Assembly (NCBI GenBank): GCA_949358305.1
Contig: OX442314.1
Coordinates: 6,634,001 to 6,698,000 of the forward strand
Direction: 5' to 3'
Origin: Strigamia acuminata
Lineage: Eukaryota
DNA length: 64,000 bases
The notes under the pieces were generated by a model that saw only the letters and a list, made by a program, of their open reading frames with translations, was not told the origin of the DNA and did no database searches. Shown piece after piece: positions 845 to 59,068 of this stretch. Every line of letters starts with the position of its first letter. Within the stretch, counting starts at the first letter, position 1. Both the position numbers and the translations under genes were made by a program.

Positions 845-2602
845 TGTATGACGGTTTATAAGTGCTATTTATTAATAACACGGCCAAATTTTAAGTGTTT
901 TTTGCGAAACCCGCATTTGTCAATGCTCCGAGTCGCCACTAGATGGCGCGATTATAATTCAGCGGTAAATTCGAATTGCGAGTTAAGAAAACTGGTAAAT
1001 AAATATAAGAATATATTTATTTGTATGAAACGACACTTTATTAGGATTAATATAAATATATATTAATAATTATTGTTCACACTAAGTGATGGGAATCTCT
1101 AGTTCAGCAGAAATGGAGATTTGATAATCCATCGATCAACCGATCGATGTGATTGGTGGATCCATTTCCGGTCCTGGGTATCCAGTTCCGGTTGTGGTGT
1201 GAATTAGCATATTGCTCCTCCGTATCCACTTCCGGCGATACGGGATTGGAGGGATTCGTGGAACCCATGTTCCAATTGGTTGATTGGATTAATCTCTAAT
1301 CCAGTCAGGTTATATAAACCCAAACAACCGGCCATCCGGCAGCTCTGTTTGATTATTTTCTGTTTGGTATTGTTACTTAAGAAATATGATTCGTTGTTCA
1401 CGTAAAAAAACCTTTTGGTTCTTTGTTGATTTATTCACAAAGAACCGTTGCATGATTCTACAGAATCATGCCACCGCCGGCAATTGAAGTCGAAGTGCTG
1501 GGATCATTATGTTGCATAAATGTTACAGTTTACGGTTGCGACGCCGAAGGAGAACCCGCCGTTGTGCAATTCAGTATCCTCCGGACAGGACCATGTGGTC
1601 TTTCTCGGTATGAACGTATTCCGTTACCGCAAGTAGCATCGTTGCTGTTGAGAATTAGTTCCTTCACCGGATGGTGCCAAAGCAGTCTGTTTTACAGTAA
1701 CCACGAGTAGCACCAAGTGTTTGGCAAGCTGATTCTCATGGTATTCGATGCCAAAGTAGTCGGTCTATTATTAGTACCGCGAGAGATTATACTGCTGTGC
1801 GGAGCCGCGAGCTATCGACTCCTGTGTACGTGATACCGTCAATCGCCAGACGAACGACCGTGTCGCGACGCAGGGGACGCTTGATACCGTTCTGCATTGC
1901 AAGGCGTATATTTTCTTTCGACGGCAATTGTGTGTTGCGACGGGAAGCCTAATCTTCATTTTATTTATAACAGCTAAATATTAACTTGGCGACAAGTTGA
2001 TTAACCAAGTCAGAAGACTTAATTACGATCACGATTACATCAAAGACGCAAATGTAACCGATAAGTTGACGACAACTTATCCACAAAATATCTAAATAAG
2101 AATTCACAACGATATGAATTAAATATAATTCATAAGCGGAATATTGATAAGTAAATGAATACATTTACTTACACCAATATCCTCCCAAAGTTGTGGCGGT
2201 GCAGACAAAGTCAACCGCAATGCTCAGATCATTCGATTTATCGACGTGCGATAATTTACACAGCGAACCAAGGAAACCAGCGAAGCCATATCGGACTCCA
2301 GGACACAGCCATCCGGCTTAGATGACATCTGTAAACCAGGTCGAGCGATGGGGAAACCGCTCCCTTATCCCAGACCCGTAGTGATATTATTCTAGGGCCA
2401 GTTGGCTAATTCTTTGTATAGTTTAATAGCTGATTTAACTTGCCAAATGTTGGCATTAGTCTTATGTATAATTTAGCTCACTGCATATTGTTTGCCAACA
2501 ATAAACTGTCTTGTATTTATCTCGTATTGTATTCACTGTTTATTTATTGCGATCTCTTCCCGGTACCATTGTTAAATGGGAGTTGTGGTCGTCACCGTCA
2601 CA
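845..2602 (+). mobile_element. 3' LTR (~1.76 kb) of the gypsy element, inserted in an intron of DEG/ENaC paralog A
   Basis: Starts TGTATGACGG directly after the PPT and ends CCGTCACA. Similar to 2735-4383 and ~19737-21454. The sequence after it matches the paralog B intron at ~25703. Confidence 0.8.
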
Positions 2603-2654
2603 GCTGCTTAATTGTAATACCAAACAAGAAGCATTTTCATCACATGTTCTTTAC

Positions 2655-5416
2655 CTGCATTTTAGATTTTTAAATTTGTTAAGTAAGCAAATCCGACAGC
2701 ATTCTATGTATTCGTTTTCGTTAGAGCATAGACTTGTGACAAATTAGCAATAGATGGCGCCACTAGTACTAGCGGCAAATTCAACCTCGAACTTACTATT
2801 CTCCGCAGAAATAGTTCACAAACATATTATTATGTTTATTACAATAAATGTAATCTAAATCGATAATATAAAGTTATATTATCAATATTCAATAAGATAA
2901 AGCAGGTATTCTTGCTTTATCACGGGTACGCGACATGAAACCCATTTTCAGAATGTATTTCCGTTCTGTGTATCCATTTCCTGTCCCCGGTATCCAGTTC
3001 CGATTTATGCTAAAGATTAACATAATCCAAATTTGCATCTCCGTATCCACTTCCTGCGATACGAGATTGGTGGAACCTAATCCCACCGAGTATAAAACTC
3101 CCTGACAACAGGAAGTTAGTTAGTTCTGTTTTCTGGTTATTTGGTATGTTCCGCATGTCAAATAACCGTTTCTCACTCAGGGCATGGTCCTACCGGACCA
3201 TGCATAGCATGGCTCTGCTGAGCCATGCAACCCCCGCCAACTGAAGGCGAAGTTCGGACTGTTAATGTTTCCGTCAAACGGTCTTGCCGAGGAGAAAGCC
3301 TCCCGCATAAGTATCCTCGTGGTCGGACAATATAATCACGTGTGATACCAAAGTATTTAGTAACCGTCGGTAGCACTGTTACTGCAAGAGATTGACTCCA
3401 TCACCTGATGGTGCCAAAGCAGTCTGCATGCAAAACATGCAGTTACCGCCAGTAGCACTATGTGTTTGGGAATGTTATATCTCTTCGGTGATGGTGCCAA
3501 AGCAGTCTACTTACGAGTAGTATCTCGGGTGATTAATTCTGTTGTGCAGAACTGCGGGCTATATCCCCCTGAGTATCAGTGCCGTCTCTCACCGCACTGT
3601 TATTTAGGGCACGCGCGATACTGTTCTGCTCGGCAAGGCGAACTTTGACGGCAATTGTGTGTTGCGATGTTTAACCTTTATTATATTTTGTAGTTGATAA
3701 ATACACCTTAATTGTTTAAACTTGGCAACAAGTTAACAACCGAAGTAAGTCACGAGACTTATTTCACTGTATGACGAATCAAATTCGTAACAATAAATTG
3801 AATACAATTTATTGAGTTAATTTATTAAACTCACAACATCGCGAATTAAATATAATTCGCAAGCGGAACCTTGGCGAATAAATGACTTCATTTATTCATT
3901 ACCAATTTCCAACCCTAGTTGTGGCGGTGCACATGAGTCAACCGCACCTCTCGAATCGAACCAAACAGCATTACACGGACCATTACACGATACGAACCCG
4001 GAACGCGAAGGAACCAGTTCCACGATTACGAAGCGCCGACGGAAACCGCGAGGACACAGCCAGCCCGGCTACGCGTAGATGACGTCTTTTAACTCGGTCG
4101 AGCGGGCGTTTTGCCGTTCCCGAACTCCGGATCACCAATAACCGTAATGTTATTATTTTAGGGCCATTCGGCCATTTTATTGTATAGTTAAATGTGCTTT
4201 TAACTTGCCAAATGTCGGCATTAGTTTATGTATAACTTTTAGATTTGATTCTATTGTTTGACAACAATAAATGTAGTGTTTTGAGAAACTTGTTGTCTTT
4301 ATTTTATCTCGTATTATTCACTATTTCACGCGACTTATACCCGGTACTATCATGCGATAGGAGTTGTGGTCGTCACCGTCACAAACTGATCGGTGAATTA
4401 AGCAAGATGAACTACAATTGTAAACAAGGTGTTGCCCAGGAATTTTAAGTCTTTAAATTAAACTTTACTTTGTTATAACTAAAATTTATTGTAGATGTTG
4501 AACCAGGATACATCGCTGGTAAAAGATAGGGATTTTTAACATTATTGAATGTCAGGTAAACCTAACGGCAAAGAGGAAAAAATTAATGTAGCAGTTACCA
4601 TTGTAATTTTATTAAGTTACTAGATAATAAGGCATTTTGCATGTCCAGTCGTAATTTTTTTTTAAATTCACTGTCAGTAATTTTCCGGCAAATGATTTGC
4701 TAGAAGCTTCAGCTTTGTCAATGAATAATATTAGTGTAACAATGAAGGTAGTGATAAATGCTCGTTTGTAGTTACCAAATCGAAATGTTGAGCATATTCC
4801 TAATCCACTGTCAGTTTCCGTCTGAACAACAGAAGTATCTGAATATCCCTATGCAAATTGTGATTTTGTGATTTTTAACTGAATATTTCTATTTTTTTTT
4901 AATTTTAATTTTTACTTTCATTTTTACACTGTCGATGTCATCAGTATTGTTAGTTGCTTTCCAAAGTGTATCCATATCGTAAGTTGGGTTTTTAATGCTC
5001 ATTAGTGCTTCGAGCATGTTATCACATGAAATGGATTCTGGTGTTTGTTTATTTGCTATAAGAGTTTCTTCCAAAAGCCTATTCATTTTCTTTGTATCTG
5101 AACTACTGACCATTAAGTCTGGTAAAGTAACTTTTTCTGATCTACTCGTTACGTCGACAGCTGTAGGATAACTGAAGTAATGCATTATTCTGTCGTATGT
5201 CTGATATGTGAGCATGCACATGCAAAATGAGAATAAAAGCAGCCAAAGGATTTGATGTTTGCTCCTCCAACGTTTCCCACTGTTTACAAAATCTTCCAAC
5301 CCAATTATATTGCAGTTGGGTTTGTTGGCATCATCCTTCATTAATTGGTGAATTGTCAAATGCAGTTTTTTTTTCATCAGTCGATTTTTCCTCATCAAAT
5401 AATTATTCTTCATCAT
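2655..5416 (-). pseudogene. DEG/ENaC paralog A: 5' exons only, disrupted by LTR insertions, remainder outside the window
   Basis: Exon 1 has IIGLEDF...ILWLLLFSFCMCMLTYQTYDRIMHYFSYPTAVDV...LPDLMV. Later exons align to B and D. The CYRIC-containing exon is split by a 1.65-kb solo LTR. Confidence 0.8.
2735..4383 (+). mobile_element. Solo LTR (gypsy-type) inserted into a coding exon of paralog A
   Basis: TGTGAC...GTCACA termini with near-perfect 4-bp TSD GACT/AACT. The flanks rejoin to the exon that is intact in paralog B (TAGAGCATGAACTGATCGG). Confidence 0.85.
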
Positions 5417-22290: not shown

Positions 22291-23270
22291 TGTCGCTAAG
22301 GGGGGATGCAACTTCTAGTGCAATTAATCTTAATCCGTCCAAATGTTTTACCTACTGTTCTTGATTTTTGAAGTTTAACCCCATACAATAAGTTCATTCG
22401 TTGAAATGTTAACCCAATGTGCACAGACACATTTCTTATTTCTCTCACCACAGACCAATACTCATAGCAAACGCGACAAAAAACAGTAACAACAATTTCC
22501 AGTGGCACTCCTGCTCAATGCCACTCTGTTAATTTTTTTTGGTCAATTTTAGACCAGTTTAAATTTGATGATGATTGTAATGTAAAATTCAAACAACATG
22601 TGCTTTCCAGACGAAACAAGCAATAAACTTAACACACATCCATTTTAAAATAAAAACAACATAAAACTATATTTTTAAAATAGAAAATATATTTGATTCC
22701 AGAATAACATTTAATGTATATAATTTCAACCATTATTATTCTGGAATAGACTAAAAATCATAAGGAACTACTTTTCCTCGTAGCAATAGTTCAACTGCAG
22801 TTCTGAGTAATTGGACTAGGCCAATGGGAGCCCAGCTTCCAGGGCTCCTTTTGAATGTGGAACGAGTATAGTGAAATCTTTATAATAACGATTTTTGCTC
22901 GTGCATGTCAAACTAACAATTTGTGTTGATTCAATACATACTTTTGTGTAATTACGACATGAAATGTTCTTTTGTGCATTAACGAGCTTTAATGAGCACT
23001 ATTTTAGGGCCTCATTGTGAGTGGAAAGTACGATGTGTAAAGTTCGTAGGGAGTTAAAAGGGCACACAAAAAATCGGACTGGGCGCTGATAGACCCGGAG
23101 ACAAACTCAGACTTGACAATAATGATTTTTGCTGGTGGATGTTAAACAAACAATTCGTGATGATTAAATATACATTTATTTTTTAATCTGTGACAAAAGC
23201 AATTTTAAATATTCTTATATGTGCTTAGCTAATATTAGTAATATTTTATTTACACACATTAGAGTGTAAA

Positions 23271-26200
23271 TCAACGACCCATCTCACGATCCCGATACCA
23301 ATTATAAGTTTTTAAAATCCAATCGTACAAAGAGAGTAGTGACATTCCCAGACCTAGTCCTACAATGCTACCAAAATCGCTTAAGAATTGAGATATTGGA
23401 TACGCTTGTTTATCTTCTAAAATCTCAACAAAGCTATCAGTAAATCGGAATATTAGTATTGGGACTTTATCTCCTGGCAGTTTATTCTCCCAAAAATTGG
23501 TTTCGTATAAAGTAACTTGGCAAGGTTGTTTACATTTGCATTGTTTTTGATTCGAGTCAAGGTTGCTTAAATACGTGAAATGAGCGGTAGTTACGGCACC
23601 TGTAGTGTTACAAACTGGCCAATTAGGTTTTCCCATGTATGGTAATCTAAAACAAAGAGGAGATTGGTCAAAGATGCAAATGGTTGCAGTTTATCTGCCG
23701 AATTGGGATAGGTGTTTTTTGAACAGATTCAATCTGGTGATGCAGCAAATGAATCTTTAATCGCTGTCATGTCAAAACATGCTTGCAAATTTGTTTGTGG
23801 TTAATGATAGTGCATTGACCCATTGCTAACTTATAACTGGTCGCGGATTAGCACATCAGTCAATGTTTAGAAAAGCAAAAATGAAAATGGATGTGATAAA
23901 ATAATAGCTGCTGTATGAAAAGAAATGAAACATCTGAACTATACCTGCACTTAACACCTCGAAATAGATTGTTCTGCCAGCAAGCACTTTTACAGTTGAG
24001 GTAAGCACTTTTGTTCTCTTCACATGGATCGCGCTTTGTATTTCTTCGTATGATCTATTTCGCAAAAGGAATCTTAGTATGAGCATTTATATAATTAATT
24101 TCATTTTCTACCTGAAACTCTCGAAGTACTACTTCGTTGACACACGCATAGTTTACGGTCAACGGTGCCAAAATGTTAACTTCCTCTTCCCGATTATTTA
24201 TGATTAGCTGCGTGTTATTATAATCCAAAATATTTATATTAATAATTACTACTGTATGTGCACAAAATTTATTTTTTCTATTTTTCTATTCACAATTAGG
24301 AATACATGTGTATCCAAACCAAACACGAACCATTTTAACATCTTTTTTCAACTTTTTATGCTACTTTGTGCATGAATAAATAGACTTTCTCGTTATCTCA
24401 TTTAAGATTGATGCTTAAAAAAACACCGAGACTGTAAATTTATCGCATTATATTTTGGTTGTAAAATTTCAGGTGATTTCGAGTGAAAATATTTTTGTAC
24501 ACACCTTTAGCTGCGTATCACAAGCTTCTGAAGGAGTTAGATATCTACTAAACGTAATGAAAAGCTTAGTGATTTTGGTGCTTGTTTTATCTGTAAGACA
24601 GCGAAAAGGTCATAATTAATTTTCCAACTCGTCTGCAAGAAAGCAATTTTTAAAGTTAAATAATTCTGTGAAAAAAAGAAAAATTGAAAAATCTCAAAAT
24701 TCAAAAGCAAACTTTTTGAATACAGCCATTAATTAACTAAAATCACAAATTAATGTTGTATATTACCTTTTCTTATTTGTGAACAATTACCAAATGGAAG
24801 TGAAATAAGATTAGTTGATATTACCTGTAAACATAAAACTTTTATTGTTTGGTTTTTGTTTGAGGAATATGACTTATTATAGTTACATCATTCACAATAT
24901 GGTCGATAGCCACCGTTTCATCGATATTAAGCGATTCCCAGATGTTTTGCAATGACAAATTGCGGTTGAACAATTGCCAGGGTGATATGTTGCCACAGGT
25001 TTTATTGGGTTGTTTAAGTAAGTGTAATCGAGCTTTGCGAATTTCTTCATTACTTTTTTCACCACAAACTGTGACAAAAGGAAATTCGGTGTAGCGTCGT
25101 TGACTTATTCGAACGATTGTTGTGCCCGGTTCATTGAGGTAGTAATTGACACGAATGTGCAAGCAATACAAAGTAAATCCTGCAACAACTAATACGAATA
25201 TTAACTTCAACTTTTTTAAGACTGTATATATTTTGGTTTGCTCCTGAGTTTCATCAACTTTTTTTTTGCACATTTCATACAGACGCCTAATCTTATTGAC
25301 GGATCTTTTTTGGTGAATGTTTGATGCAACATAATATAAATACCAAATGATGTCAGGTAATGAGATTACGGATAGTCCGATAAACAAGCCCAGATTGCCT
25401 CCTAAATCTGATAATAAGGCAATAACATCATATGAGTACCGTTCTTCATAAACAGTGACTTTCTCATTAGTTATTGCTAATGATAAACTCATTGTTTTAT
25501 TATTTTTAGGTATGCCTAAATCAGTATGTGGTGTAAAAGTTATATGTTGACAAGGATGTTCACATCCGCAATCAGCAATTGGTTCTGCAAATATAACGAA
25601 GTCCTTAACATCATGATACGTCTGATTTGTATCATCTGCAAATTTGCAAAGTGGCAAATCTAGCTTCATGAACGGAAATCTTGTATAGAATATATTTAAT
25701 TAGCTGATTAATTGTGATACCAAACAAGAAGCATTTTCACCACATGTTCTTACCTGCATGTTAGCTTTTTAAATTCGTTAAGTAAGCAATTCCGATAGCA
25801 TTCTCTGTATTCGTCTTCGTTAGAGCATGAACTGATCGGTGAATTTTGCAATATGAACTACAAATGAAAACATTAAAAAGTGTTGCCCAGGAATTTCAAG
25901 TATTTAGGTAAAACCTTACTTTGTTATAACTAAAATTTATTTTTAATGTCGAACCAGGATACATCCGTGATAAAATAAAGTGATTTCCAACGTTACTGAA
26001 TGTCAGGTAAATCTTAGGGCAAAGAAGAAAGAATTAATGTAGCAATTGCTATTGTAATTTAATTAAATTACCCAATAATCAGGGTTATTGCATATCAAGT
26101 CGTAATTTTTTTGATAATTCACTTGCAGTAATTTTCCGACAAATAATTTGCTAGAAGCTTTAGCTATATCAATGCATAATATTGGTGTAACAATAAAGGT

Positions 26201-26871
26201 TGTGATAAATGCTCGTTTGTAGTTACCAAATCGAAATGTTGAGCATATTCCTAATCCACTGTCAGTTTCCGTCTGAACAACAGAAGTATTTGAATATCCC
26301 TATGCAAATATAGTTTAAATTGTGATTTTTAACTGAATTTCTCTATTGTTTTTTTTTTAATTTAAATTTTTACTTTCATTTTTAGACTGTCGATGTCATC
26401 AGTATTGTTAGTTGCTTTCCAAAGTGTATCCATATCGTAAGTTGGATTTTTAATGATCATTAGTGCTTCGAGCATGTCATCGCATGAAATGGATTCTGAT
26501 GTTTGTTTATTTGCTATAAGAGTTTCTTCCCAAAGCCTATTAATTTTCTTTGTATCTGAACTACAGACCATTAAGTCGGGTAAAGTAACATTTTCTGATC
26601 TACTCATTACGTCGACAGCTGTAGGATAACTGAAGTAACACGTTATTCTGTCGTATATCTGATATGTGAGCATGCACATGCAAAATGTGAATAAAAGCAG
26701 CCAAAGGATGTGATGTTTGCTCCTCCAACGATTCCTACTGTTTACGAAATCATCCAGACCTATTAAACTGCAGTTCGGTTTACTGGCATCATCTTTCATC
26801 ATTAGTTGAATTGCAGAACGTAGTTTGCTTAATCTTAGCATATTTCTTCTCAACAAGTGATTACCCTGCAT
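23271..26871 (-). CDS. Tandem two-domain DEG/ENaC (ASIC/pickpocket-like) channel, paralog B, 11 exons, about 792 aa
   Basis: Exons 26871-26374, 26299-26227, 26163-26072, 26012-25920, 25857-25754, 25679-24887, 24824-24767, 24590-24505, 24207-24112, 24054-23945, 23646-23271. All introns are GT-AG with compatible phases and no stops. Motifs: YFSYPT, LPDLMVC, Cys-rich thumb, LLSDLGGNLGLFIGLS, then a second TM1/FPFVTVC, second thumb and FLSDFGSIVGLGLGMS. Confidence 0.88.
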
Positions 26872-31185: not shown

Positions 31186-31302
31186 CGCGCTCCTCGCTGT
31201 CGCGCTCCTCGCTGTCGCGCTCCTCGCTGTCGCGCTCCTCGCTGTCGCGCTCCTCGCTGTCGCGCTCCTCGCTGTCGCGCTCCTCGCTGTCGCGCTCCTC
31301 GC
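31186..31302 (-). repeat. In-frame 15-bp tandem repeat encoding (RGARQ)7-RGAR
   Basis: Seven perfect CGCGCTCCTCGCTGT units plus a partial unit, located between integrase and RT. Confidence 0.95.
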
Positions 31303-31838: not shown

Positions 31839-32246
31839 AAGGCTTTTTACTTACCGTTGGGTGGCGCCACTACGCGCATGCGCGTAGCGCAAATGAGGGG
31901 CAAAAACCAAAACAAGACAATAGAAACAGATCAAAATTCTATTTATTAATTTATTTTTTCAACATTTAAAAAAAAAATTTTTCCAGTTACTTCGGAAAAC
32001 CCATGTTGCATTCATTTTAATTTCAAATTTAATTTTTTTTTTTTTTGATTTTTTTTTTTTTTTTTAATAATTGAAATTAACATCGGTTTTCCGAAGTAAC
32101 TGGAAAATTTTTTTTTAAAATGTTGAAAAAATAAATTAATAAACAGATTTTTAGTCGTGTTGCTGTGGTGTTGTTGTGGTTTTTGCCCTACATTCGCGCT
32201 ACGCGCATGCGCTTGGAGCGCCGCCCAACGATAAATAAAAAGCCTT
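31839..32246. mobile_element. Near-palindromic MITE inserted in the copia integrase
   Basis: AAGGCTTTTTA...TAAAAAGCCTT with long imperfect TIRs. Removing it plus one AT restores the reading FWGEAILTAAHLRNR. Confidence 0.85.
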
Positions 32247-35200
32247 ATATGGCTTCGCCCCAGAACTTCTGTGGCAACTTCGAGTCCACTAATAAAGTTC
32301 GCATCGCTTCTGTCACAGTTCTATTCATTCGTTCTGCAACCGCGTTGCTTTCAGGTGAGTATGAGGTGGTCAATTCGTGTAGAATCCCTTTCTGAGTGAA
32401 GTATTGTCCCAAACTGTCGTTCAAAAACTCCCCGCCATTGTCCGACCGTATGCGTTTCACGAGTCGTCCCATCTGCAGTTCAATATGCGTCAAGAAGTCT
32501 TTAATCGCGGTCCCAGCCTCACTTTTAGTACTCAATACCCTCAAAAATACCATTCTGCTACAGTCATCAACCATAGTCAGTACATAACGTGCTCCCCCTA
32601 ATGTGGGTACGGGCATCGGCCCCATCAAATCAACATGAATCAACTCCATTATTTCTTGGGATTGTTGATATATAACGGCACGTCGTGGAACCCTTGTCAT
32701 TTTTCCTTTCGCGCATTCCAGACAAGTCTCATCTGGCAAATTGTCATCCCACTTCAAGCCTTTTACTAAATTTTGGCTTTTCATGTCTTCCAGATTTTTG
32801 AAATTTGGATGCCCCAATCTTTGATGCCATAAAGTTCGTGTCGCGCATTGTGTCACGCACGCTTCCTCGTTATCACGCTGCATATGAGCGTTTTCGTCGC
32901 TGAGTGTCCCAACCATGTCAAACATGAACTTGTCGTCCACACGTTGTGCCCTCATCACGTGATTCCCATCTTTATCTTGCACGTTGGCGCACTGCCACGT
33001 AAATGTCACAGTCAACCCTGCATCGACCATCTTGGGAACAGATAGTAAATTTGTCTGTAGTGTCGGGATATATAGAACATTGTTCAAACGTAACGTGTTC
33101 CCCGAAACATCTTCCGTGACGCGCATTTGCCCCCGTCCTGGTGACTTCGCTTCCGCCTTACCACTTGCCAAACCGACATCTTGTGGATATTGTTCAAAAG
33201 ATTCAAAATCTTCCTTGTGTGAAACCATATGGCTTGTTGCCCCTGAATCCAAAAGCTAACTTTCACATTCATCCTTCGTCGCCTCCTCGTTCCACCGCTC
33301 AACATCTCGACTAATTGGCAAAACTATTGCCCCACACGAGTATTCTCGTGGTTTGGTTGTCGGTCGTACTTCGCTTCGTGCTGAAGACTCAGCTGTTCTA
33401 TTTCCGCCGCGTCCTTTGTTCGGTGTTCTCGTATTTGTCCCAATTCCGCGTGAATGCGCGCTTCCCCTCGTTGCATCATTCGTTTTACTCTTGGACCAGC
33501 AGTCCCGGGCGTAATGCCCAATCTTGTGGCAATTATAACATTCTACATTGCATTTCCCCTTTGGTCGTTCCCATTTCCATCGTGACTTTTTTTCTTTACA
33601 CGCTGTCTTTCCTCTTTAAATCTCAATGCGGTTCGAGCTTCACCCAAAGCCAGGTCATTGCTTTGTCCCTCAAAAATTCGCACATTGTGCTCAAACTCAA
33701 CTCGCAGTCCTCGTGCTACGTAACTTAGCATTTCCTGATTGCTAAATATTTTCCCAAGTTCCGCTGCTTTGGTCTTTATTGCCTCCGCACGATTGATGTA
33801 AGTTTCAACCGTTTCTTTTTCGTTCATCTTCACCTGCGCTAATTCTATGCCGCATTTGACCACTTCAAAATCATTTTTCGGTTCCTTGTGAGTCTCAATC
33901 GTTTCCCACAGCTTTTTGGCGTTCGTTTCCATACTGTATCGCACTCCTTGCTCTCCTGAAAGTGACAGCATCAAGATCCCCATGGCCTCGTCATTTTTTC
34001 GCTCTCAATCCTCCCAAATGGCCCGCATCTGGCCGTAATTCGACTGTCCTAGTCGTTCTTTCTCCGGTTCGTCATTCACGATCACTGTCTTCCATAAGCC
34101 TTTCATCTTTAATACTGCACGCAATCTCATCTTCCACAGGAAATAATTCCTGTCGGTCAGTCTCTCAACCGTCGTTGATGAAGAAGAGACGTTCACGAAC
34201 GATTCCGCCGTCGCCATCTCGTGTCGAAATTCCGTAGCAGACGACAGAAATAAACGGGAATTAATTTCACGGCAAATATTTTCAAAAACTTAGTGACACT
34301 ATAAACTTGCGGTTTTCTGGCCCGTTTTTTTGCTTCAGCAGGTCAATTTGGCTTCAGTAATCAAACCATCCATCTGCTACCACTTGTTGGTTTATACGCA
34401 AATAAACAGACGTTTGAAAAGCAATAAAACGAACATGTCGGCATTTATTCCAACTCTAACGACAACACATTGTAAACTACAACACTGGTTGCACTACATT
34501 CTTGTGCAATCAGTTCTCGGCAATAATACATTAATCAATAAACTCAACACTCTAATTGCTTTGTGGTAAAAACACATCCACAAAAACATGTGTTTTAATA
34601 CATTTATAAGTACGATTTATAAACTTTTAGGGAATTAAATGGGGAACACAAAAGATCACACTGGTGCTGATAGACCAGGAACCATTCCAATAACTTTTAA
34701 AATAATGACTCTTTCTAGTGCATGTCAAACTAACAATTCGTGTTCATTAAATACTAGTACATACAGTATAGACCTTTTTTAAATTTGTGATGCAACAGAT
34801 TTAAAATATTTTATGTGAATAATTTTATTGAAGTAATATTTTATGACCAGGAAAGATCAAACACTTCACATGTGCAAATGATTTTAAGACGAGTTCCATA
34901 AAGATAAATAACTTTAAAATCATTTTTATAATAAATGAAGTAAACTCTATGACAAATGTAACTTTTAAAAACCAATGTCCATTTTATATCTTAAACATAT
35001 GGTAGCCAACCTATTTCCTTTTAAATTTAGCACTAACGTAACATGTGACGTATATGGATAGCTTTTATGTAGCCATATTTTATTGCTTCTTTTGGAAGCA
35101 AATCGACACGATCTTAATCTTATACCAATTATAACTGTTTAAAATACAAATGTAGAGAGACAGTAATGACATTCCCAAACCCAATCCTACAATACTACCG

Positions 35201-37090
35201 ACATCGCTTAACAATTGAGACATTGGATAAGCTTCTTGCTCTTCAATACTCTCCAACAATGTATCAGGGAATTCAATATCTATCATTGTCAAATTACTAC
35301 CTAAAAATTTAATTCCATGGCAAAAATATTTGTAAAAACTATTTTCACATGGTAGTTTACATTTGCATTGTTTCTGATTTGAATCAAAATTCTTTTTAGA
35401 TACATGAAATGAGCGAAAGTAGATTCCTTTGTTGTGTTACAAACTGGCAGATTCGGTCTCCAGAAATAAGGCAATCTGAAACAAACAGTAGAAGCTTAAA
35501 ATTTACATACAACCATGCACATTATTTATTTGCTGAATAAGATAAATGTGTTCATACTGTGTATGTTCTGTATGTTACATACACAATGCAATTAGAATTG
35601 AGATGTGAAAAAAGTGAAATATTTAAACTGACACACCTGCAGGTAATATTTTGAACTAAATTGTTTCTCATGCAAGCTTTTTTACACTTGAAATAAGCAC
35701 TTTTGTCCTTTTCACATGGATTGCGCTTTGTATTTCTTCGAATAGTCTATTTCATAAAAACAAGGTTGTTAAGTGTAAGCATTTATATAATTAGTTTAAT
35801 TTTCTACCTTAAATTCTTTAAGTGTTACCATGTTCAACCAATGATAGTTTACAGCTAACGGTGCCAGAATATTAACTTCTTCTTCCAGATTATTTGGGAA
35901 AAACTAAACACAGTTATAATTCAAAAGTAGGTGAATATGTATGTACAGACTTATCCATAAATCACAAAATGTACAGGTTTGGGCAATAATACAGTAAACC
36001 AAAAGTTTGAATAAAATTTATCTTTATCAACAAAAAATCTCACAGATTGTGTTCACAAATCCGAAGTAAACGTGAGATGATCAATTCACCAAGAAAATAA
36101 ATTGCAAGGCCGCTTGACATGCAAAGACTAATATGACCCCTTCCCCCCCCCCCCAACTTTTTGGCAACTTTTTGGGTGTGAAAAAAGGTTTAAGCTGATT
36201 TGGTACACAAGCTTTGATTGCACTTGCACAGAAATTTTCTGGCAAGCAGAAAGTTATACTTTCTACAGCAGTGACGGTGGACGGAAAAATTCTATTCTTT
36301 CTGGAATAGCAAAATTTATTTCCTATTCATTTTTAATTGCTGGAAATTTTTTTGGGTTGATGTTCGAATGGCGAATGACCCAATAGCGAAAATGTGCAGA
36401 TTTGTCATTCAAGATGAATTTTATTGTTTCCAATGATAAAATTTGACATTTTTGCCATTGACCATTGCATTTGAACATGATGTACGATTATTGCTGTCAT
36501 TAAACATTCTTTCTAATTCATTTAATATGTATAATATTTTATGAAATAAGTAATCAATGCAAAAGTTTACAGAGGGGCTTAGTAGTTACTACGCCGCAAC
36601 GTAGAACTGTAGTCTGTCCAAAAAGTTTACAATGTTCTCCTTTTTTAAAAATGTCACAAATTAGTTTAGCACTGCGTTTTAGTGATTTTGTATTCTGATA
36701 AAACTATTCACACCATTTAATAGTGTGAAGTTTGAGCTTCCTTGAAAAGTAATTTACAGCGTAGTACCAAAATATTTTTATTTATTTACCTTTCTTTTAG
36801 CATTGTTAGGCCTAATATTTGGCTTAATACTGCTAAATAACAACTGGAATTAGAAAATTGTCTGCGCAGAATGGGATGCGCAGTACGAATTTAGTATCAA
36901 GATGCCGGGCGCAACCTGTGGTTAAATTAAGGTTTGCCAACATTTGGAGTTGCACCAGTCGCTATTTCCGTTGCTGGTGCTGGTTTACATTTCCGCCAAA
37001 GAGGAGTGTTCTCTTAGGACGTAGTTCTACGTCAAAAGAGTTTTTATTTAATAACAAATGGTGTTGTAGTACAGTACGGTACCTTTAGAT

Positions 37091-37346
37091 CAGGGGTCGG
37101 CAAGTAATTTTAAGTGGGGTCCGGAAAAATTGAAAATTTTTATCGAGGTCCAGAAAAAGACAACAAAATAAAACAAAAAGAACACAAAAAACATCAAAAA
37201 CACCCAAAAAAAACCAAAAAAACCAAAAAAACACCAAAAAACACCAAAAATACCAAAAAAATATATAATAAAAAATATCTGGCGGTCCAAGTTTCGACCT
37301 TCCGCGGTCCGGATCCGGACCGCGGGCCGCCAGTTGCCGACCGCTG
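37091..37346. mobile_element. hAT-type MITE
   Basis: TIR CAGGGGTCGGCAA...TTGCCGACCGCTG and perfect 8-bp TSD CTTTAGAT. Confidence 0.88.
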
Positions 37347-37562
37347 CTTTAGATGTTGGTCACATAGTTTCGAAGGAAATAGATTATGAAATGTAATAAA
37401 AAGATAAGAGTTTGGGTCTTTTGATTGTTCTGAAAAACATTGGAAAGGTGTGAATAAATTTTCAGATGCATCTGCTAGAAATGATTTTTACTAGATAAAT
37501 TATTCCAATCAAAAAATTAAATTATCACAAAAAAGTGAGTTCTGTGAGAATAACCAAATATT

Positions 37563-37956
37563 AGGTGCATTCAAGTTAAAATTCAAATTTGACTTATCAA
37601 TAATTCATGTAAGTCATTTGACTTAACTCCAGTGGGCGTGTCATCAACATTCTTAATACGTCCAAGTGCCTCCTAGTGACGTATTGGTGGCCGTAATACA
37701 TAATATCCAACACACATGAATAATTAGGCCACTGGAATAAGTTATTCAAGAGGATGCCCCCAGTCAGTCAACCATGAAAAGAGGAACCCAGTAAGAAACT
37801 GGTCGAGGAATGAAGAATTGAATTTGCTCATTACCTATCTGAACAGCCAAAGGCATGATTAGTAATTGCTGACATTTTAAGCACAAATTCATGTTTGAAT
37901 TATTAATAATTCAGATTATTATAAGTCAAATTTGGATTTTAACTTTGAATGCACCG
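37563..37956. mobile_element. MITE, short member of the AGGTGCATTC-TIR family
   Basis: GGTGCATTCAA...TTGAATGCACC termini, similar to 50324-52084. Confidence 0.7.
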
Positions 37957-40900
37957 ATTGTTAAAGTGTGAAATAATAGAAATTAAATTGCTAATTTACT
38001 TATGTTTATCCGTGAACAATTGCCAAAAGGAAGTAGAAGAGGATGCTTTGATATGTTTAGCTCTGTTTTATATCCATACAATTTCTACAAAAATAATGAT
38101 TTTCAATGCCATTTGTTTTTAGGTAATATAAAATACTAGAATACCTCATTCTCAATATCAATGGTGTCATGGACACTGAGTGTTTTCCAAATATCTTCCA
38201 GTGACAATTTGTTGTTGAACAATTGCCAGGGCGATATTTCATTGCAAGTTTTGTTGGTCTGTTTCAGTAAGTGTGATCTGGCTTCGTCCATGGCATCATT
38301 TTGATTTTCACCACAGATCGTGACTGACTGATATTCGATGTAGCAGCGTTGATCTATTCTAACCATTGTTGTTATCAGTTCATCAATGTAGTAGTTGATG
38401 CGAATACGCAACCAATATAAAGTGAATCCCGCAGTCACAAATACTAGCGCAAACTTAAACCTTTTTAAGACTTCATTTGTTATGGTTTGCTCTTTACTTG
38501 CAATGACTTTCTTCTTGCATATCTCGTACAGAGGACGAATCTTATCGACGGATGTATTTCGGTGAATGTTTGTTGCAACATAATATAAATACCCAGTGAG
38601 TTCAGGTAACGAAATTAACGCTAGGCCAAAAAACAGGCCAAGATTGCCACCTAAATCCGACAGAAGAGCAATTGCGTCGTACGTGTATCGTTCTTCATAC
38701 ACGCTAATTTTGTCATTAGAAATTGCTAGAGATACAGATACAGTGTTTTTATCATCTGCTGTGCCTATTTCAGTGAAAGATGTAAAGGTTATTTGATGAC
38801 ATGGACGTCGACAGAGACACACAGTAATGGGATTTGTGGTCTCAATCAACTGCTTTGCAGCACCGTAATGCATGTATATGTCCTTCGAACATTTGCAAAG
38901 TGGTAAATCGATCTTCATGAAAGGAAATCTTTAATAGAAGATTTGTAATCATTATTTTTTTATGTAGAACTACATCTTTCTCTGCACTAAGCGGGCTGCA
39001 ACAATTGGACAGGAATGACACGGGAATGGAAATGCAATTTTTTTTATTTCTTACCTGCATGGTAGCTGCTTAAATTTCTTCAATAGACATCTCCGATAGC
39101 ATTCTCTGTATTCCTCTTGACTAGAGCATTCATTTATTGGTGAATTCAGAAAAATGAACTAAAATGTTTGAGTAAAATAAGGTGATTCGTAGGAATTTTC
39201 GGTCTTTGATAAAATTTTACTTTGTTATAACTCAAATAAACTTTTGTTGTTCCACCGGGATATTGTATTCCCACCCCGAAAATTTTTCCAAAATTGTAGA
39301 AACGAAAACCAACCTAAGGGCAAAGGAAAAAAAAGTAGACAACAACTATTTTTGCAATGTATTAAAATTACACCGTATTTCGATGCAGGGCATGTGTCAT
39401 CATAACTTGTTTCTATTTTAACTGTTACGACTTGTCCAACAAAAGATTCGCTAGATGCCTTAGCTATATATCAATAAATAATAAAGTGCATTGAAGTTGA
39501 TAGTGGTAAATGTTTGCTTATACATACGAAATTGAATTGATGAGCATAGTCCATGATAATTGATCATTTCTGTCAGAACAAATGTTTTGTTTGAATTAGA
39601 ATATCCCTATGCAAAATAAAGAGATTTAAATAATTTTTTTTAACTCATTAAAAGTTATTGATTCCATCTTTTTACTTTTATTTTTACGCTCACAACTTCT
39701 TTCGTCAAATTACTCGCTTCCCAAAGTTCCTCTAGATTGTAAGTTGGGATTGCCATTAGTGCGTTTAACTTGTTACTGCAGGCGGAACGTGAAGGTTTGG
39801 ATTTTGATTAAGTTTTATTCCAAAATCTCGACATTTCTTTTGTATTGCTACTACATATCAACAAAATCGATAGGACGACCTCTTCTGATCTACTCGTTAC
39901 ATCAACAGTCGTAGGATAACTTAAGTAATGCATTACCCTATCGTAAGTCTGATAAGTAAGCATGCATGTGCAAAATGAGAATAAAAGTAGCCAAAAGGTG
40001 TGACGCCTTGTCCAATGTTTTCTACTGTTTATGAAATCATCCAAACCAACTAAGCTGCATCGAAGTTTATTTGCATCATCCTTCAACAATCGATGAATTG
40101 CTGGACGTAGTCACCTCACCAAATTATTATTTTGCATTATATATTATTTAAATCAAAGGTTTTTTCTATAATGACAATTGATGATTATGAACAATTTAAT
40201 TATTGAAAGGAATAAGTGTAGATGTTATGATCTTTTTATCTGCTTTTGGTGGTGTGAAAAGGTACATACCTGCTTGTTATTCGACGTCTCTCAGTGCTGT
40301 GAGTTCAAAATTGACTGTAAATTCTCTTTTCTCATAGATCTTCTATTGATTTGTATAATTCTAATTAAAGTGCCTTTGGTGAGTGAATGAAAACTTAATT
40401 AGATTTTTGAAATGCATTTAATTATTTATAGTAAATGTTATGTTCAGAAAATTCGATAATACACTGCAGTCCACCTTGACACGAATTCTGTATCTTGGAC
40501 AGCCAGCCCATTTCTAGCATGCATAAGCTAATGGGAGTTAAAGAAAAATAAATTATTAATTTTAATTACCTACATGATCAATTTTAAAAATTAAAACTAC
40601 CTCCTCTATCTAGAACCGCCTATTTCTGGCACGGACAAGCTACAGTAATTATACGAAAAAGAAAATGGAGTTTTTAATAAATATACAATCAATTTTTGAA
40701 GTAAAACTTCTTTGGCGCAACAGAGACTCAAAATAGGAAATGACAATAAGTGACGGAAATGATGTAACAGTAAGGGGAAAAGCGAAGCACAATACAAGCA
40801 GTGAAGGGAGAGGAGCAAACCACAGACCAATACAAGATAATTGACTAACACAAAACACAAAACATGTGTTAATTTGTAATAAGTGGAGATGTTTTATGTC

Positions 40901-47500: not shown

Positions 47501-48145
47501 GATAGTGGACTTGGTTCCTTGACTGGCCGTGATGGAAAATAGGAATTCGCGTGTTTTTCATCCGCTGCCAATTGAGTTGTTTGTGGGATTGTAAAGCATT
47601 GTAGCAGTGTTCACTACCTTACACATATCATTATTAAATTTAGCACCGAGTTGACTACAGCGCCTCAGTTACTCTCTTTCGCCACACCAACACTAACAAC
47701 ATGTCTGTAACCAGAATAAAATAGTGTCTTGAATTCATGATTAGCCATTAGGAAACACTTTTTTTCAAGCGGTTAATTTAAAATGGAAGATTAAACTCTG
47801 TGTATGTCAATTTATGTAGACGTTAGTTGATTTTCTTGACGTATTTGTAAATTGACACCATTTTGGAGACCCATGTCATGAACTGGACTTAGGACTATTT
47901 TTCACTTCTATAATTAAGGTGATACTATTATTTGGTCTTTGGTAGTGAATTAATCCATATTCCTTCCAAAGACATGCATAAAGGTTAATTGATGGATTTT
48001 ACTGGCGTATGAAACAACCAATGTTAAAAAAATAATGATGTTGTTTCGTTTTTCAGTTTAGCCATCCCTCTGCATGTTTGCTCAAGCAAACAAACTTTGA
48101 TCAAACTCTTTCAGTAACTATACGAGCTTGGAAGGAACCAAAATA

Positions 48146-51100
48146 ATGGAGAATAATAGTTTGATGTGGAGATACAGAAGAGGGAAAAGTCAACTGCGTC
48201 TGACAATTCACCAATTAATGAAGGATGATGCCAACAAACCCAACTGCGATATAATTGGATTGGAAGATTTCGTAAACAGTAGGAAACGTTGGAGGAGCAA
48301 ACATCACATCCTTTGGCTGCTTTTATTCACATTTTGCACGTGCATGCTCACATATCAGACATACGACAGAATAATGCATTACTTCAGTTATCCTACGGCT
48401 GTTGATGTAACGAGTAGATCAGAAAATATTACTTTACCAGACTTAATGGTCTATAGTACAGACACAAAGAAAATGAATAGGCTTTGGGAAGAAACTCATA
48501 TAGCAAATAAAAAAATATCAAAATCCATTTCATGTGCTATCATGCTTAAAAAACTAATGACAATTGAAAACCCAACTTACGATATGGATACACTTTGGAA
48601 AGCAACTAACAATACTGATGACATCGACAGTGTAAAAATGAAAGTAAAAATTAAAATTAAAAAACAAACAATAGAGAAATTCAGTTAAAAATCACAATTT
48701 AAACTATATTTGCATAGGGATATTCAAATACTTCTGTTGTTCAGACGGAAACTGACAGTGAATTAGGAATATGCTCAACATTTCGATTTGGTAACTACAA
48801 ACAAGCATTAATCATTTCCTTCATTGTTACAATAATATTATTCATTGACATAGCTGAAGCTTCTAGCAAATCATTTGTCGGAAAATTACTGACAGTGAAT
48901 TTAAAAAAAAATTACGACTGGACATGCAAAGTGCCTTATTATTGGGTAACTTAATTAAATTACAATAGCAATTGCTACATTAATTTTTTCCTCTTTGCCC
49001 TTAGTTTTACCTGATATTCAATAATGTTGGAAATAACTATTTTGTATCAGTGATGTATCCTGGTTCAACATCTAAAATAAATTTAAGTTGTAACAAAGTA
49101 AAGTTTTACGTAAAAACTTGAAATTCCTGAGCAACACTTGTTAATGTTTACAATTGTAGTTTATATTGCAAAATTCACCGATCAATTCATGCTCTAACGA
49201 AGACGAATACAGAGAATGCTATCGGAATTGCTTACTTAACAAATTTAAAAAGGAAAAATGCAGGTAAGAACATGTGGAAAAAATGCTTCACAATTAAACA
49301 GCTAATTAAATATATTCTGTACAAGATTTCCGTTCATGAAGTTGGATTTGCCACTTTGCAAATTAGGAAATGATGCAGATAACATGTATCACATTGTTAG
49401 GCACTTAATTAAACATACAGAACCAATTACCCATTGCCAATGTCGACGTCCTTGTCAACATTTAACTTTTACACCATATACTGATTTAGGCATAGCTAAA
49501 AATAATAAAACGATGAGTTTAACATTAGCAATAACTAATGAGAAGGTTACTGTTTATGAAGAACGGTACACATATGATGTTATTGCCTTACTATCCGATT
49601 TAGGAGGAAATCTGGGCCTGTTTCTTGGACTATCCGTAATCTCATTACCGCACATCATTTGGTATTTATATTATGTTGCATCAAACATTCGCCGAAAAAG
49701 ATCCGTCAATAAGATTAGGCGTCTGTATGAAATGTGCAAAAACAAAGTCGATGAAACTGAAGAGCAAACCAAAATACATACAGTCTTAGAAAAGTTGAAG
49801 TTAATATTCGTATTAGTTGTTGCAGGATTCACTTTGTATTGCCTGCACATTCGTGTCAATTACTACGTCGATGAACCGGGCACAACAATCGTTCGAATAA
49901 GCCAACGACGCTACACCGAATTTCCTTCTGTCACAATTTGTAGTGAAAAAAGAAATGAAGAAATGCGCACAGCTCGATTGGACTTACTGAAACAACCCAA
50001 TAAAACCTGTGGCAACATATCACCCTGGCAATTGTTCAACAGCAAATTGTCGTTGCAAAACATCTGGAAATCGCTTAGTATCGCCCAAGTTTTACATGTT
50101 GGCTGTGTTGAGAAAAAGGATGTAACTATAATAAGTGATATTCCTCAAATAAAAACCAAACAATTAAAGCTTTATGTTTACAGGTACCATCAATTAATTT
50201 TATTTCACTTCCATTTGGCAATTGTTCACAAATAAGAAATGGTTATATATAAAATTAATTTCTGATTTTAGTTAATTAATGGTTCTATTCAAAGTCTACT
50301 TTTGAATTCTAGGATTTTTCAATAGGTGCATTCAAAGTCAAATGAATTATTTGACTGAAATGACTGAAATGACTGATTTGACTGATTTGACTTAACAGTC
50401 ACAGGAAATGATGCAATTTACATCATCAGATGATAATCGAAATTTGAAAATTCATAATCTGCTTATTTTCATGATTTTTTACAAGCTTTTCAAGACTTTT
50501 CACTCAGTTTTCGATGATTTTTGACGATTTTTGACGATTTTTACACAGTTTTTGACGATTTTTACCGAGGCTTTCACAATTTTTACCCAGTTTGTCACGA
50601 TTTTTACCCTTTTCACCCAGTTTTTCATGATTTTTACCCTTTTCACCCAGTTTTTCATGATTTTTCACAATTTTTACTTTGTTTTTCACATTACATAATT
50701 TTTACCCAGTTTTTCATGATTTTACACGATTTTTACCGGTTTTTCATTATTTTACACGATTTTTACCCAATTTTTCACGATTTTACATGATTTTTATCGT
50801 TTTTCACGATTTTACACGATATTTACCGAGTTTTTCACAATTTTTACCTTGTTTTTCACGATTTTTTACAATTTTCACCCAGTTTTTCATGATTTTTCAC
50901 AATTTTTACCCTGTTTTTCACTGCCCAGTGGAAATGCTCAAAACATAAATTACATGCAAACGAGGTTCAATATTTGCAAGGTTAGTAGCGCTCTTATAAT
51001 TAGGTTAGTAAAATGCTAACACAACACTAAGCTAGTTTACAATAATATTCAATGAATAAATTCAAAAAAAATTTCAAAAAAAAATTCAAAAATTCAAATA

Positions 51101-53863
51101 AATCAAGAAAATCTTCAAAAATGATGTTTTCAAGAAGTTGAAAGGTTTGTGAAGTCATCTGGTGCACTTCACGTGCTTTTCCTTGAAAATCTGGTCCAAA
51201 ATATCCATAATTCTACTGGTTGAAATATCCGAAACAATCCACACACTTCACGTGTATTTTTCTGGTCAAAATGTCCGAAATTCGCAATTTTCGCTGGTCT
51301 ATGGTGTCCAAATCGATTCCCACACTTCACGTGTGTTTTCCTCTCGAAATTTGGGTCCAAAAAACGTCCAAAAACATGCAAAACGTTCAAAAATGCCTCG
51401 CACGAGTCCAAATGGTACAAATCGTCGTCTGGGCGCATTCTGTGCTGCACGGCACGTCCTTCGCGAACGTTTCGGCGACGTTCCTCGTTGTTCGCGAACG
51501 TCCGTGCGACGTTCCTCGTTGTCCGCGAACGTCCGTGCGACGTTCCTCGTCGATTAGCGGTCAACGCCGCGAACGTGTCGGAAATGTGCGGCCCTGGCAA
51601 TCGTACGATCGGCGTGCGCTCGAAAACATAAATTTGTGTTTAAAAATGTCAGCAATTACTAACCTTGCTTTTGCCTAAGTATGGCTGTTCAGCTAGGTAA
51701 TGAGCACTGCTCATTTCTTGAGTCCTTGACCAGTTTCTTGCTGGATTCCTCTTTTCATGATAGACTGACTGGGGGCATCCATCTTGAATGGCTTATTCCA
51801 GTGGCCAAATAATTCATGTGCTCAGCCATGATTGGAGGAATTTTTCCATCAGCCACTTATTGATAAGTCATGATTGGAGTGACTTATCAATAGGCCACTT
51901 ATTGCAATTGAATTATCTTTTCAGTGATGTAAATTACATCATTTCCTGTGACTGGTAAGATATTTCAGTCACATCAGCCAAATAATTGTTCACTTTGTAT
52001 GGAATTTAGCCAAATGACTTATATGAATTATTGATAATTCAGATTATGATAAGTCAAATTTGGATTTTAACTTTGAATGCACCTATTGTCTTTTTTTTTC
52101 TGGAATTATTTAACTGTAAAAATTGCTTACTGCAGACGAATTAGAAAATTAATTCTGACCTTCTCACTTTCTTCCAGATAAAACAAGCACAAAAACCACT
52201 AGACTTGACATTATTTTCACTATAGGTCCAACTCCTGCAGAAGCTTGTGATCCGCAGATAAAGGTGTGTAAAAAAAATATTTTCACTCGAAATCACATGT
52301 AATTTTGCAACCAAAATGGAATGTTATAAATTGACAGTCTCAATGTCTTTTTAAGCAGCATTCTTAAATAAGATAACGAGAAAGTCTATTTATTCATGCA
52401 GAATGAAGCAAAAAAGTTCTTTAGATAATCCAAATCTAAAAGAAGTTAGAAAAATGGTTTGTGTTTGGTTCAGACACACATGTATTCCTAATTGTAAATA
52501 GAAAAAATAGAAAAATAGTTTTTGTGCACATAACTTACAGTTTTAATTATAAATATAAATATTTTGGATTATATTAACACGCAGCTAATCATAAATAATC
52601 GGGAAGAGGAAGTTAACATTTTGGCACCCTTGACCGTAAACCATCCATGTTACTACTTTGTAGTACTTCGAGAGTTTCAGGTAGAAAATGAAATAAATTA
52701 TAGAAATGCTCCTACTAAGATTTCTTTTGCGAAATAGATCATACGAAGAAATACAAAGCTTGATCCGTGTGAAGAGAACAAAAGTGCTTATCTCAAGTGT
52801 AAAAGAGCTTGCTGGCATAACAATGTACTTCGAGGTGTTAAGTGCAGGTATACTTCACATTTCTATTCATGCATCAGCTCCAATTTTATCACATCTATTT
52901 TTATTTTTCGCCGTTCTAAAGATTGACTGATTAGCCAATCCGCAGTCAGTAATTGCACTAGCATTAAACACACACAAACTTGCAAGCATGTTTTGACATG
53001 ACAGCGATTAAAGATTCATTTGCTGCATCACCAGATTGAATCTATTCGAAAAACACCTAACCCTTTTCAGCAGATAAACTGCAACCAGTTGTGACCGTCT
53101 GGCCACCGTGGCTACCTACGGTGATGCGTGTCACTCCACACACTGCTCTCTGGTCCCTGGCCACCCCTCTTGCGAGGTATACTGGCCTAGTGGGAAAGAA
53201 AGGAGCTGAGTGGTGGAGAGAAGAGACTGTGAGTCAGAGAGAGAGAGAGTTTGGACAGCACAGGATGAGGAAGTGTGCTCTTGAGGTCTCTCAGCCAGCC
53301 TGGGCAGTGCAGTGCCCCAGTTGACTCTGCTCGTCTCCATTATTACGTGAAGGTCCGGTCCCACCCACGGCGATCAATCCCCAGATTGCTGTGAGAGCGA
53401 AGACCCGTCACAGCTAGTCTTCAGTTATGTCAATTCTAGAAGAAGCATCTTTGACCAATCTCCTCTTTGTTTCAGATTACCATACATGGGAAAACCTAAT
53501 TTGCCAGTTTGTAACACTACAAGTGTCGTAACTACTGCTCATTTCACGCATTTAAGCAACCTTGACTCGAATCAAAAACAATGCAAATGTAAACAACCTT
53601 GCAAACATATTTTTTACAAAAGTACTTTTCGGAAGAGTCCTTACCTAAATGATGGAGTTACAGTTCTATTGTTGCAATTTGCTGATAGCTCTGTAGAGAT
53701 TGTAGAAGAGAAACAAGCATATCCAATATCTCAATTCTTAAGCGATTTCGGTAGCATTGTAGGACTGGGTTTGGGAATGTCACTTCTCTCTTTGTACGAT
53801 TGGATTTTAAAAACTCTTAATTGGTATCGGAATCAAGATGTGGGTTGTAGATTTGCACTCTAA
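48146..53863 (+). CDS. Tandem two-domain DEG/ENaC (ASIC/pickpocket-like) channel, paralog D, 11 exons, about 797 aa
   Basis: Exons 48146-48643, 48718-48790, 48854-48945, 49005-49097, 49160-49263, 49326-50121, 50184-50241, 52178-52263, 52585-52680, 52738-52847, 53476-53863. GT-AG introns, compatible phases and no stops. Two TM1-ECD-TM2 units. Confidence 0.88.
50324..52084. mobile_element. Non-autonomous DNA transposon in an intron of paralog D
   Basis: TIR AGGTGCATTCAAAGT...ACTTTGAATGCACCT flanked by AT on each side. Absent from the equivalent intron of paralog B. Confidence 0.8.
53090..53412. mobile_element. Truncated solo LTR (small family) in the last intron of paralog D
   Basis: TGTGACC...GTCACA, absent from the equivalent intron of paralog B. 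Confidence 0.7.
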
Positions 53864-58868: not shown

Positions 58869-59068
58869 NNNNNNNNNNNNNNNNNNNNNNNNNNNNNNNN
58901 NNNNNNNNNNNNNNNNNNNNNNNNNNNNNNNNNNNNNNNNNNNNNNNNNNNNNNNNNNNNNNNNNNNNNNNNNNNNNNNNNNNNNNNNNNNNNNNNNNNN
59001 NNNNNNNNNNNNNNNNNNNNNNNNNNNNNNNNNNNNNNNNNNNNNNNNNNNNNNNNNNNNNNNNNNNN
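58869..59068. other. Assembly gap (200 N)
   Basis: Run of N. Both flanks carry TCGAGACCAATTAAA. Confidence 0.99.

Follow-up and report, generated by a model that had tools for sequence, protein, structure and literature searches.

The DEG/ENaC channel subunits characterised to date have two membrane helices and form trimers of separate chains, as stated in the passages on assembly of PMC5203786 and PMC9974506. From Scolopendra centipedes, BRTNaC1 was described as a heat-activated channel (passages of PMC9974506), and PDPNaC1, a proton-gated channel of the antenna, as a homotrimer (passages of PMC12714832). Engineered ASIC concatemers joined from C to N terminus were reported, in part of PMC10329638, to be present at the membrane in full length and to conduct. 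Here we describe gene A, located at 48146..53863 on the plus strand of a 64,000-nucleotide stretch of Strigamia acuminata DNA (contig OX442314.1, positions 6,634,001 to 6,698,000 of the forward strand; the window hereafter). Its open frame of 11 coding exons predicts a protein of 797 aa with two head-to-tail DEG/ENaC subunits and with Pfam ASC matches in exons 1, 6 and 11. Each half is a member of the DEG/ENaC family, but a chain that carries two subunits departs from the canonical form of one per polypeptide. Among solved chains, the best sequence match was BRTNaC1 (PDB 8YMR/8YMW, E value of 2e-11); PDPNaC1 (PDB 9JF7) matched with an E value of 4e-11 and ENaC (PDB 6WTH) only weakly. We consider it likely that gene A unites two diverged DEG/ENaC subunits through one old fusion at the DNA level, and that it encodes a four-helix protein whose halves are neighbours in one channel.

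Reading frame, fusion exon and introns of gene A

Translation together with a listing of candidate splice sites gave a frame from the ATG at 48146 to the stop at 53861-53863 that was uninterrupted over 797 codons once ten introns were removed. Exon 1 (48146..48643) encodes the N-tail, the first transmembrane helix (TM1, ~48308-48370) and the finger of half 1, and is followed by introns 1 (48644..48717, phase 0), 2 (48791..48853, phase 1), 3 (48946..49004, phase 0), 4 (49098..49159, phase 0) and 5 (49264..49325, phase 2). Exon 6 (49326..50121, 796 nt) is the fusion exon: it carries, with no intron between them, the end of half 1 with its second transmembrane helix (TM2, 49588-49674), a basic linker of ~40 aa (49675..49794), and TM1 (49795-49860) and the finger of half 2. 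Half 2 continues across introns 6 (50122..50183, phase 0), 7 (50242..52177, phase 1), 8 (52264..52584, phase 0), 9 (52681..52737, phase 0) and 10 (52848..53475, phase 2) to exon 11 (53476..53863), which contains the end of half 2, its TM2 (53735-53818) and the stop; an AATAAA lies just past the stop at 53872. The Pfam ASC profile (PF00858) scored 39.5 bits in exon 1, 72.3 in exon 6 and 55.5 in exon 11, against a curated cut-off of 23.6. All ten introns have GT..AG ends, with phases 0,1,0,0,2 in half 1 and again 0,1,0,0,2 in half 2, in full agreement with the ten introns of the preliminary description. Retention of a single intron would bring an early stop in nine of ten cases, the exception being intron 2 (63 nt, frame open). 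The counterpart of this intron in paralog C, described below, is 64 nt, and the S. maritima model T1JEH2 is without the segment.

A tblastn search within the window detected three paralogs, all on the minus strand. Paralog B (23259..26871) is an intact two-subunit gene of 792 aa, 77% identical to A and with the same ten introns; paralog C (35083..40137) is a broken two-subunit gene, 55% identical, in which all ten introns recur with unchanged phases and the linker is open; and paralog D (2602..5413) consists of exons 1-5 only. The ten splice-site pairs of A recur in B and C, and B has GT..AG ends at all ten projected intron sites, including a conventional GTAATA donor at intron 7. An alternative donor for intron 4 at 49110 was rejected and the donor settled at 49098, because paralogs B, C and D keep 49098 and are without the GT of 49110. 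The splice junctions of gene A are predictions from DNA and paralog comparison. With tblastn at E values up to 10, no third repeat was found in the window upstream or downstream of gene A, and an in-frame stop near 48099 excludes an additional upstream repeat in its frame. An acceptor-like site ends at 48057 (region 48030-48060), ahead of the ATG, and suggests that the first exon is untranslated.

The preliminary description had placed the introns at five equivalent positions in two very diverged halves. The divergence was borne out, the halves being 22-26% identical (BLASTP E value of 2e-17; HHalign probability 99.4), and their cysteine-rich thumbs share an aligned series of Cys residues. When the introns were mapped onto alignments of half 1 with half 2, pairs 2/7, 4/9 and 5/10 occupied the same column and phase in all four alignments (HHalign and three MAFFT modes, the latter taking in all family halves), each at a constant distance from an aligned cysteine. 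Pair 3/8 was offset by 2-4 columns and pair 1/6 by 2-7 columns in a gapped region, so that equivalence is exact for three of the five pairs and only near for the other two. In a plain two-sequence alignment of the halves, two of five pairs were exact and pair 4/9 lay eight columns apart. The chance of at least three exact matches is 1e-5 over 130 codons, or 0.01 if one tenth of the sites are intron-capable, and that of the shared phase string alone is ~0.007 under background intron phase frequencies. Both halves have thus kept five introns each, with the same phases and three of five sites exact, and since both retain five introns, an origin by retrocopy is excluded. Conservation of introns between paralogous genes is ordinary. 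The intron match is real and constitutes good, if ordinary, evidence; the notable result is the naturally concatenated DEG/ENaC itself.

No stop codon interrupts the linker, whether in A, B and C or in four S. maritima models; 45 codons evolving neutrally would be expected to lack a stop about 3 times in 100. It carries 10-15 Lys/Arg residues. Of seven close family members, six have 85 residues from TM2 to just past the TM1 of half 2, and one has 84. It is very improbable that the locus instead holds two distinct genes in tandem, or was merged in assembly or annotation, with a linker that is open incidentally and two proteins of two helices each being made. Such an explanation could point to the Met within the gene A linker (residue 423), which is, however, missing in C and T1JGJ4 and thus not conserved, and to the through-linker transcript being a prediction from DNA. 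It could also point to likely merged tandem models elsewhere, in which the halves are mutually closest (P0028, P0032, P0062, P0120, P0122). In gene A and its relatives the junction lies within one exon and no stop intervenes, the linker has no space for a 3' end and promoter, neither AATAAA nor ATTAAA occurs in 49675..49794, and independent contigs bridge the junction. These contigs, assembled from DNA runs X1 and X2 of one study (possibly the assembly's own sample), derive from diverged copies and span TM2 to the TM1 of half 2 collinearly. Because they cover introns and their listed joints include no GT..AG intron skip, the two runs behave as DNA and say nothing on expression; depth summed over all contigs at TM2, ~100-fold that of an individual contig, is no measure of copy number and was not used as support. 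A furin-like RRKR in the linker was considered as a cleavage site and discarded, being predicted cytoplasmic and not conserved in B or C.

Age of the probable fusion and relationship of the halves

A HMMER search returned 339 proteins at E values of 0.001 or below, and the family analyses used the best 150 of these 339. The top database matches were four models from S. maritima, which share 51-58% identity with exon 6, cross the junction and keep its length; ten further junction-spanning matches were checked, nine from S. maritima and one from Polypedilum. Nine S. maritima models have the same fusion (T1JEH2, T1JGJ4, T1JEG4, T1IYF0, T1J963, T1JD34, T1ITL7, T1JBK6 and T1IPM9), and the fusion models of this species range from 22 to 58% identity to exon 6. 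Their double Pfam architecture is already visible in UniProt, where it is unnamed. Two-repeat models of this kind are easily taken for annotation merges; the exon structure of gene A indicates that gene A is not one. A weak search for homologs of the half 2 C terminus (last exon) gave no match among 3705 candidates, and all clusters retrieved from the Atlas were ASC clusters with lengths of 378-412 aa.

For phylogenetic analysis, 152 proteins together with A, B and C were divided into 222 domain units, and the 145 with at least 230 profile columns were kept. In the FastTree phylogeny of these 145 rows, the halves from the window fell within a 50-row clade that also holds BRTNaC1 and PDPNaC1. 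A subset of 52 rows, picked after this first tree, was then analysed with IQ-TREE under LG+G4, without P0096, which has a branch of zero length and is likely chimeric between two halves, and without the long-branched P0074. The 12 first halves formed one clade (100/98) and the 15 second halves another (98/90); eight of the proteins in these clades had no organism label. Neither half clade contained a single-domain protein, although single-domain S. maritima models such as T1IGW0 are present in the wider clade. BRTNaC1 (P0089) and PDPNaC1 (P0085) lay outside the 27-row group of halves, which are thus not their orthologues by this tree. Long branches were abundant and the outgroup was not a single clade.

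The tree of halves called for in the preliminary description, built here with database homologs, thus separated first from second halves. Its claim of a DNA-level fusion of two tandem six-exon genes is upheld by the five introns of each half and by the join inside exon 6. Its dating of the event as ancient also holds, since the fusion is shared with diverged S. maritima models and since first halves group apart from second halves. An internal duplication of recent date, within gene A or its subfamily, could draw on the intron pattern common to the halves and has next to no probability: the halves are 22-26% identical against 49-77% for the paralogs, and a recent duplication inside the subfamily of the window was rejected by the approximately unbiased (AU) test (p-AU 0.004, LG+G4). 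Our reading is one old DNA-level fusion followed by radiation of the whole gene.

The further claim that the partners arose by duplication and were then fused is supported as to the fusion and tentative as to the origin of the partners. The half clades were sisters in the best tree (89/92) and in a further tree (Shimodaira-Hasegawa-like approximate likelihood ratio test support of 94). An unlikely alternative is that two neighbouring paralogs were fused that had already diverged and were already heteromeric, the introns being ancestral to the whole centipede clade. It would accommodate the few-codon offsets of two intron pairs and the TM2 signature that half 2 has as its own across the family, and the AU test did not reject trees in which one or the other half clade groups with a second S. 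maritima multi-repeat family, described below (p values of 0.153 and 0.154). The sister relationship of the halves speaks against it, as does the lack of single-domain proteins in the half clades once P0096 and P0074 are omitted.

Under the reading of one old fusion, two tandem six-exon genes of a centipede lineage would have been joined once at the DNA level, the last exon of gene 1 merging with the first coding exon of gene 2. The intergenic stop codon, 3' end and promoter would have been lost in this step, and the cytoplasmic C-tail of gene 1 and the N-tail of gene 2 would have become the ~40-residue basic linker. The fused gene would then have been copied whole many times.

Pore helices and channel assembly

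Hydropathy analysis was in agreement with two helices around a large outer loop in each half, the expected helices being the four most hydrophobic 19-mers of both A and B; a threshold of 1.6 was passed by two of the four helices in A and three of the four in B. The TM2 motif D-x-G-G...G-x-S reads D-L-G-G-N...G-L-S in half 1 and takes the variant form D-F-G-S...G-M-S in half 2. D-x-G-G-N was kept in 12 of 12 first halves, and the second Gly was replaced in 11 of the 12 second halves with a TM2, as it also was in the outgroup row P0046. In the comparison of A with B, the ratio of nonsynonymous to synonymous substitution rates (dN/dS) was 0.12 (10 changes, one-sided p 0.003) and 0.14 (8 changes, p 0.013) in the two TM2 regions, indicating that both pore helices are under purifying selection. 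It was 0.27 and 0.49 around the TM1s, and 1.29 and 0.97 in the outer domains (exons 2-5 and 7-10), where the short introns are 92% identical; the contrast between transmembrane regions and outer domains had a p value of 1e-5. Replacement sites in the outer domains thus change at least as quickly as silent ones, which points to relaxed or diversifying selection. The conserved and different TM2s suggest two helices that are both pore-lining yet unequal, with half-specific signatures kept across proteins ~25% identical.

AlphaFold2 modelling of the complete S. maritima protein T1JD34 from 25 sequences gave two DEG/ENaC-like halves connected by a helical linker (predicted local distance difference test [pLDDT] score 72, predicted template modelling score 0.67), and its best PDB fold matches were BRTNaC1 (Foldseek E value of 6e-18) and PDPNaC1. 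A model of exon 6 alone, from 3 sequences, had a pLDDT of 32 and was not used.

From these features, the product of gene A would be a four-helix protein with both ends and the linker inside the cell, as expected from the topology of the family and the 10-15 Lys/Arg of the linker. The two halves would occupy two adjoining places in one channel and produce an asymmetric pore, half 1 contributing the usual D-x-G-G-N helix and half 2 the variant helix. Chains with two subunits do not go evenly into a trimer, so a natural one must take on a third partner, tie trimers together, leave one half hanging outside or adopt a different symmetry. Since DEG/ENaCs are trimers, we favour recruitment of one single subunit as the third partner by the linked pair, a tentative proposal that has a little less than an even chance. 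Self-assembly of the fused chain is possible but rather doubtful: three chains might form two tethered trimers, or two chains a trimer with a spare half or a four-fold pore. The searches gave no close relative with a single subunit, the top four matches all crossing the junction, and the weak search with the half 2 C terminus (0 of 3705) is in line with this. A tetrameric ASIC1a has moreover been argued for in part of PMC4529235. Against self-assembly, the solved relatives are homotrimers (passages of PMC12714832), the wider clade includes S. maritima models with a single domain (T1IGW0), and a short linker of conserved length would suit neighbours within one ring. An arrangement with one half always outside the pore is disfavoured because both TM2s are conserved.

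The family seems large, and with its rapidly changing outer domains it resembles families of sensory receptors. A sensory role is somewhat probable, by analogy, because the relatives BRTNaC1 and PDPNaC1 are antennal and the outer domains evolve quickly; single-subunit relatives in the group sense heat and protons.

Several observations weigh against the interpretation of gene A as an old fused gene encoding a linked channel pair. Purifying selection on the linker is not significant when A and B are compared (dN/dS 0.75, 8 changes, p 0.5), and two of the four gene copies in the window are broken. Between A and B, the short introns match each other as well as the exons do (404/439 nt against 2092/2391 nt), so exon boundaries are not marked by divergence, and the junctions and through-linker transcript are predictions from DNA. 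Among the automatically predicted S. maritima proteins, several are fragmentary or chimeric (the N-terminal part of T1JEH2 is repeated), and the modelled T1JD34 is a relative 22% identical to exon 6 and not the gene A protein. In the phylogeny, the support of 89/92 for sister halves is modest, trees uniting one or the other half clade with the second S. maritima family were not rejected, and the 145-row tree placed the second half of P0012 among the first halves, next to P0096; this misplacement disappeared once P0096 was dropped. Finally, the His-Gly motif before TM1 is absent from both halves, half 2 being without the whole segment. The working channel PDPNaC1 is also without this motif (passages of PMC12714832), so its absence is not decisive.

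The lesions of paralog C comprise two stops in exon 1, an insertion at the end of exon 8 and a frameshift in exon 11. The exon 8 insertion (37354-37083) is short and has an 8-bp target duplication, from the length of which we take it to be hAT-like. Paralog D is interrupted twice, at ~4383 and ~2601, by copies of one repeat with long terminal repeat-like ends, both interruptions starting with the identical repeat end. Intron 7, which is 1936 nt in A against 176 nt in B, contains in A an insertion with terminal inverted repeats (50320..52088) that is missing from B and from one X1 contig that skips it; a related inverted-repeat element lies in intron 7 of C (~37562-37961). Retrotransposon frames on the minus strand at 30039-34004, 42287-44248 and 60075-63998, with gag, protease, integrase and reverse transcriptase motifs read by eye, are presumably Ty1/copia-like; the last is open over 1307 aa and continues past the window edge. 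A 200-N assembly gap at 58869-59068 lies outside gene A.

Natural and engineered multi-repeat channels

Full-text literature searches, with subscription journals outside their coverage, found no paper on a natural two-repeat DEG/ENaC. The terms 'fusion' and 'fused' did not occur in the searched text of PMC8438182, PMC5203786 and PMC9822975, and ENaC does not appear in the main text of the S. maritima genome paper (PMC4244043). Decapod ENaCs are mentioned in PMC7067487, with no architecture described in the passages concerned.

Further multi-repeat proteins were seen among the homologs. A second S. maritima family comprises P0008 (T1IZL2), P0007 (T1IU28), P0009 (T1ITG7) and P0015 (T1IL99), whose repeats are mutually close and form their own clade (100/100). 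P0008 contains repeats 1 and 2 and the start of 3, and P0007 two repeats preceded by the end of another, so these are possibly a natural three-repeat chain or merged models; the family is of separate and younger origin than the gene A fusion. A cluster of 970-1093 aa proteins with two full repeats and a reduced middle repeat (P0038, P0043, P0051, P0090, P0091, P0099, P0101, P0127 and P0153-P0160) includes XP_069977668.1 of Penaeus vannamei. Its other members are uninterrupted frames on Logan contigs of 3.4-4.5 kb, which suggests that these contigs are mRNA; first and third repeats of the cluster group separately from the centipede family. Two gene models of Halocaridina rubra, P0068 (KAK7028032.1) and P0132 (KAK7013173.1), have three full repeats each, which pair 1-1, 2-2 and 3-3 in the tree (99, 100 and 93), as expected for an inherited single-chain trimer. 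The chances are about equal for and against the view that arthropods repeatedly made natural DEG/ENaC concatemers, namely an old and expanded family in Strigamia-like centipedes, whose two repeats fix two unequal subunits of a sensory channel; a family in S. maritima that is younger and has two or three repeats; and single chains with three repeats in decapod crustaceans. Were this so, DEG/ENaCs would have a parallel to the series of voltage-gated channels with one, two and four repeats.

Among other channels, the TPC, K2P and four-repeat Nav/Cav proteins likewise have subunits fused through intragenic duplication and an asymmetric pore. Their fold is, however, unrelated and four-fold, and two repeats divide four evenly, which they do not do for a trimer. 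Heteromeric ENaC places unequal alpha, beta and gamma subunits round one pore, as gene A would, but from three unlinked genes.

Closer in sequence, BRTNaC1 is a short DEG/ENaC subunit of ~430 aa that belongs to the same broad clade as the halves and gave the best fold match to the modelled T1JD34. It differs in having one two-helix subunit per chain and in lying outside either half clade. PDPNaC1 resembles both halves in the missing His-Gly motif, whereas it is a single subunit that forms a homotrimer and its gene has nine exons and eight introns, compared with five introns per half in gene A (passages of PMC12714832). Closest in design are the engineered ASIC concatemers, which share the linkage of C-tail to N-tail and a fixed order and stoichiometry (part of PMC10329638). 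Those constructs are man-made, contain three subunits and keep full tails, whereas gene A would be a natural, inherited pair with a trimmed linker, from a family in which short linkers occur naturally and the asymmetry of the pore would be built in.

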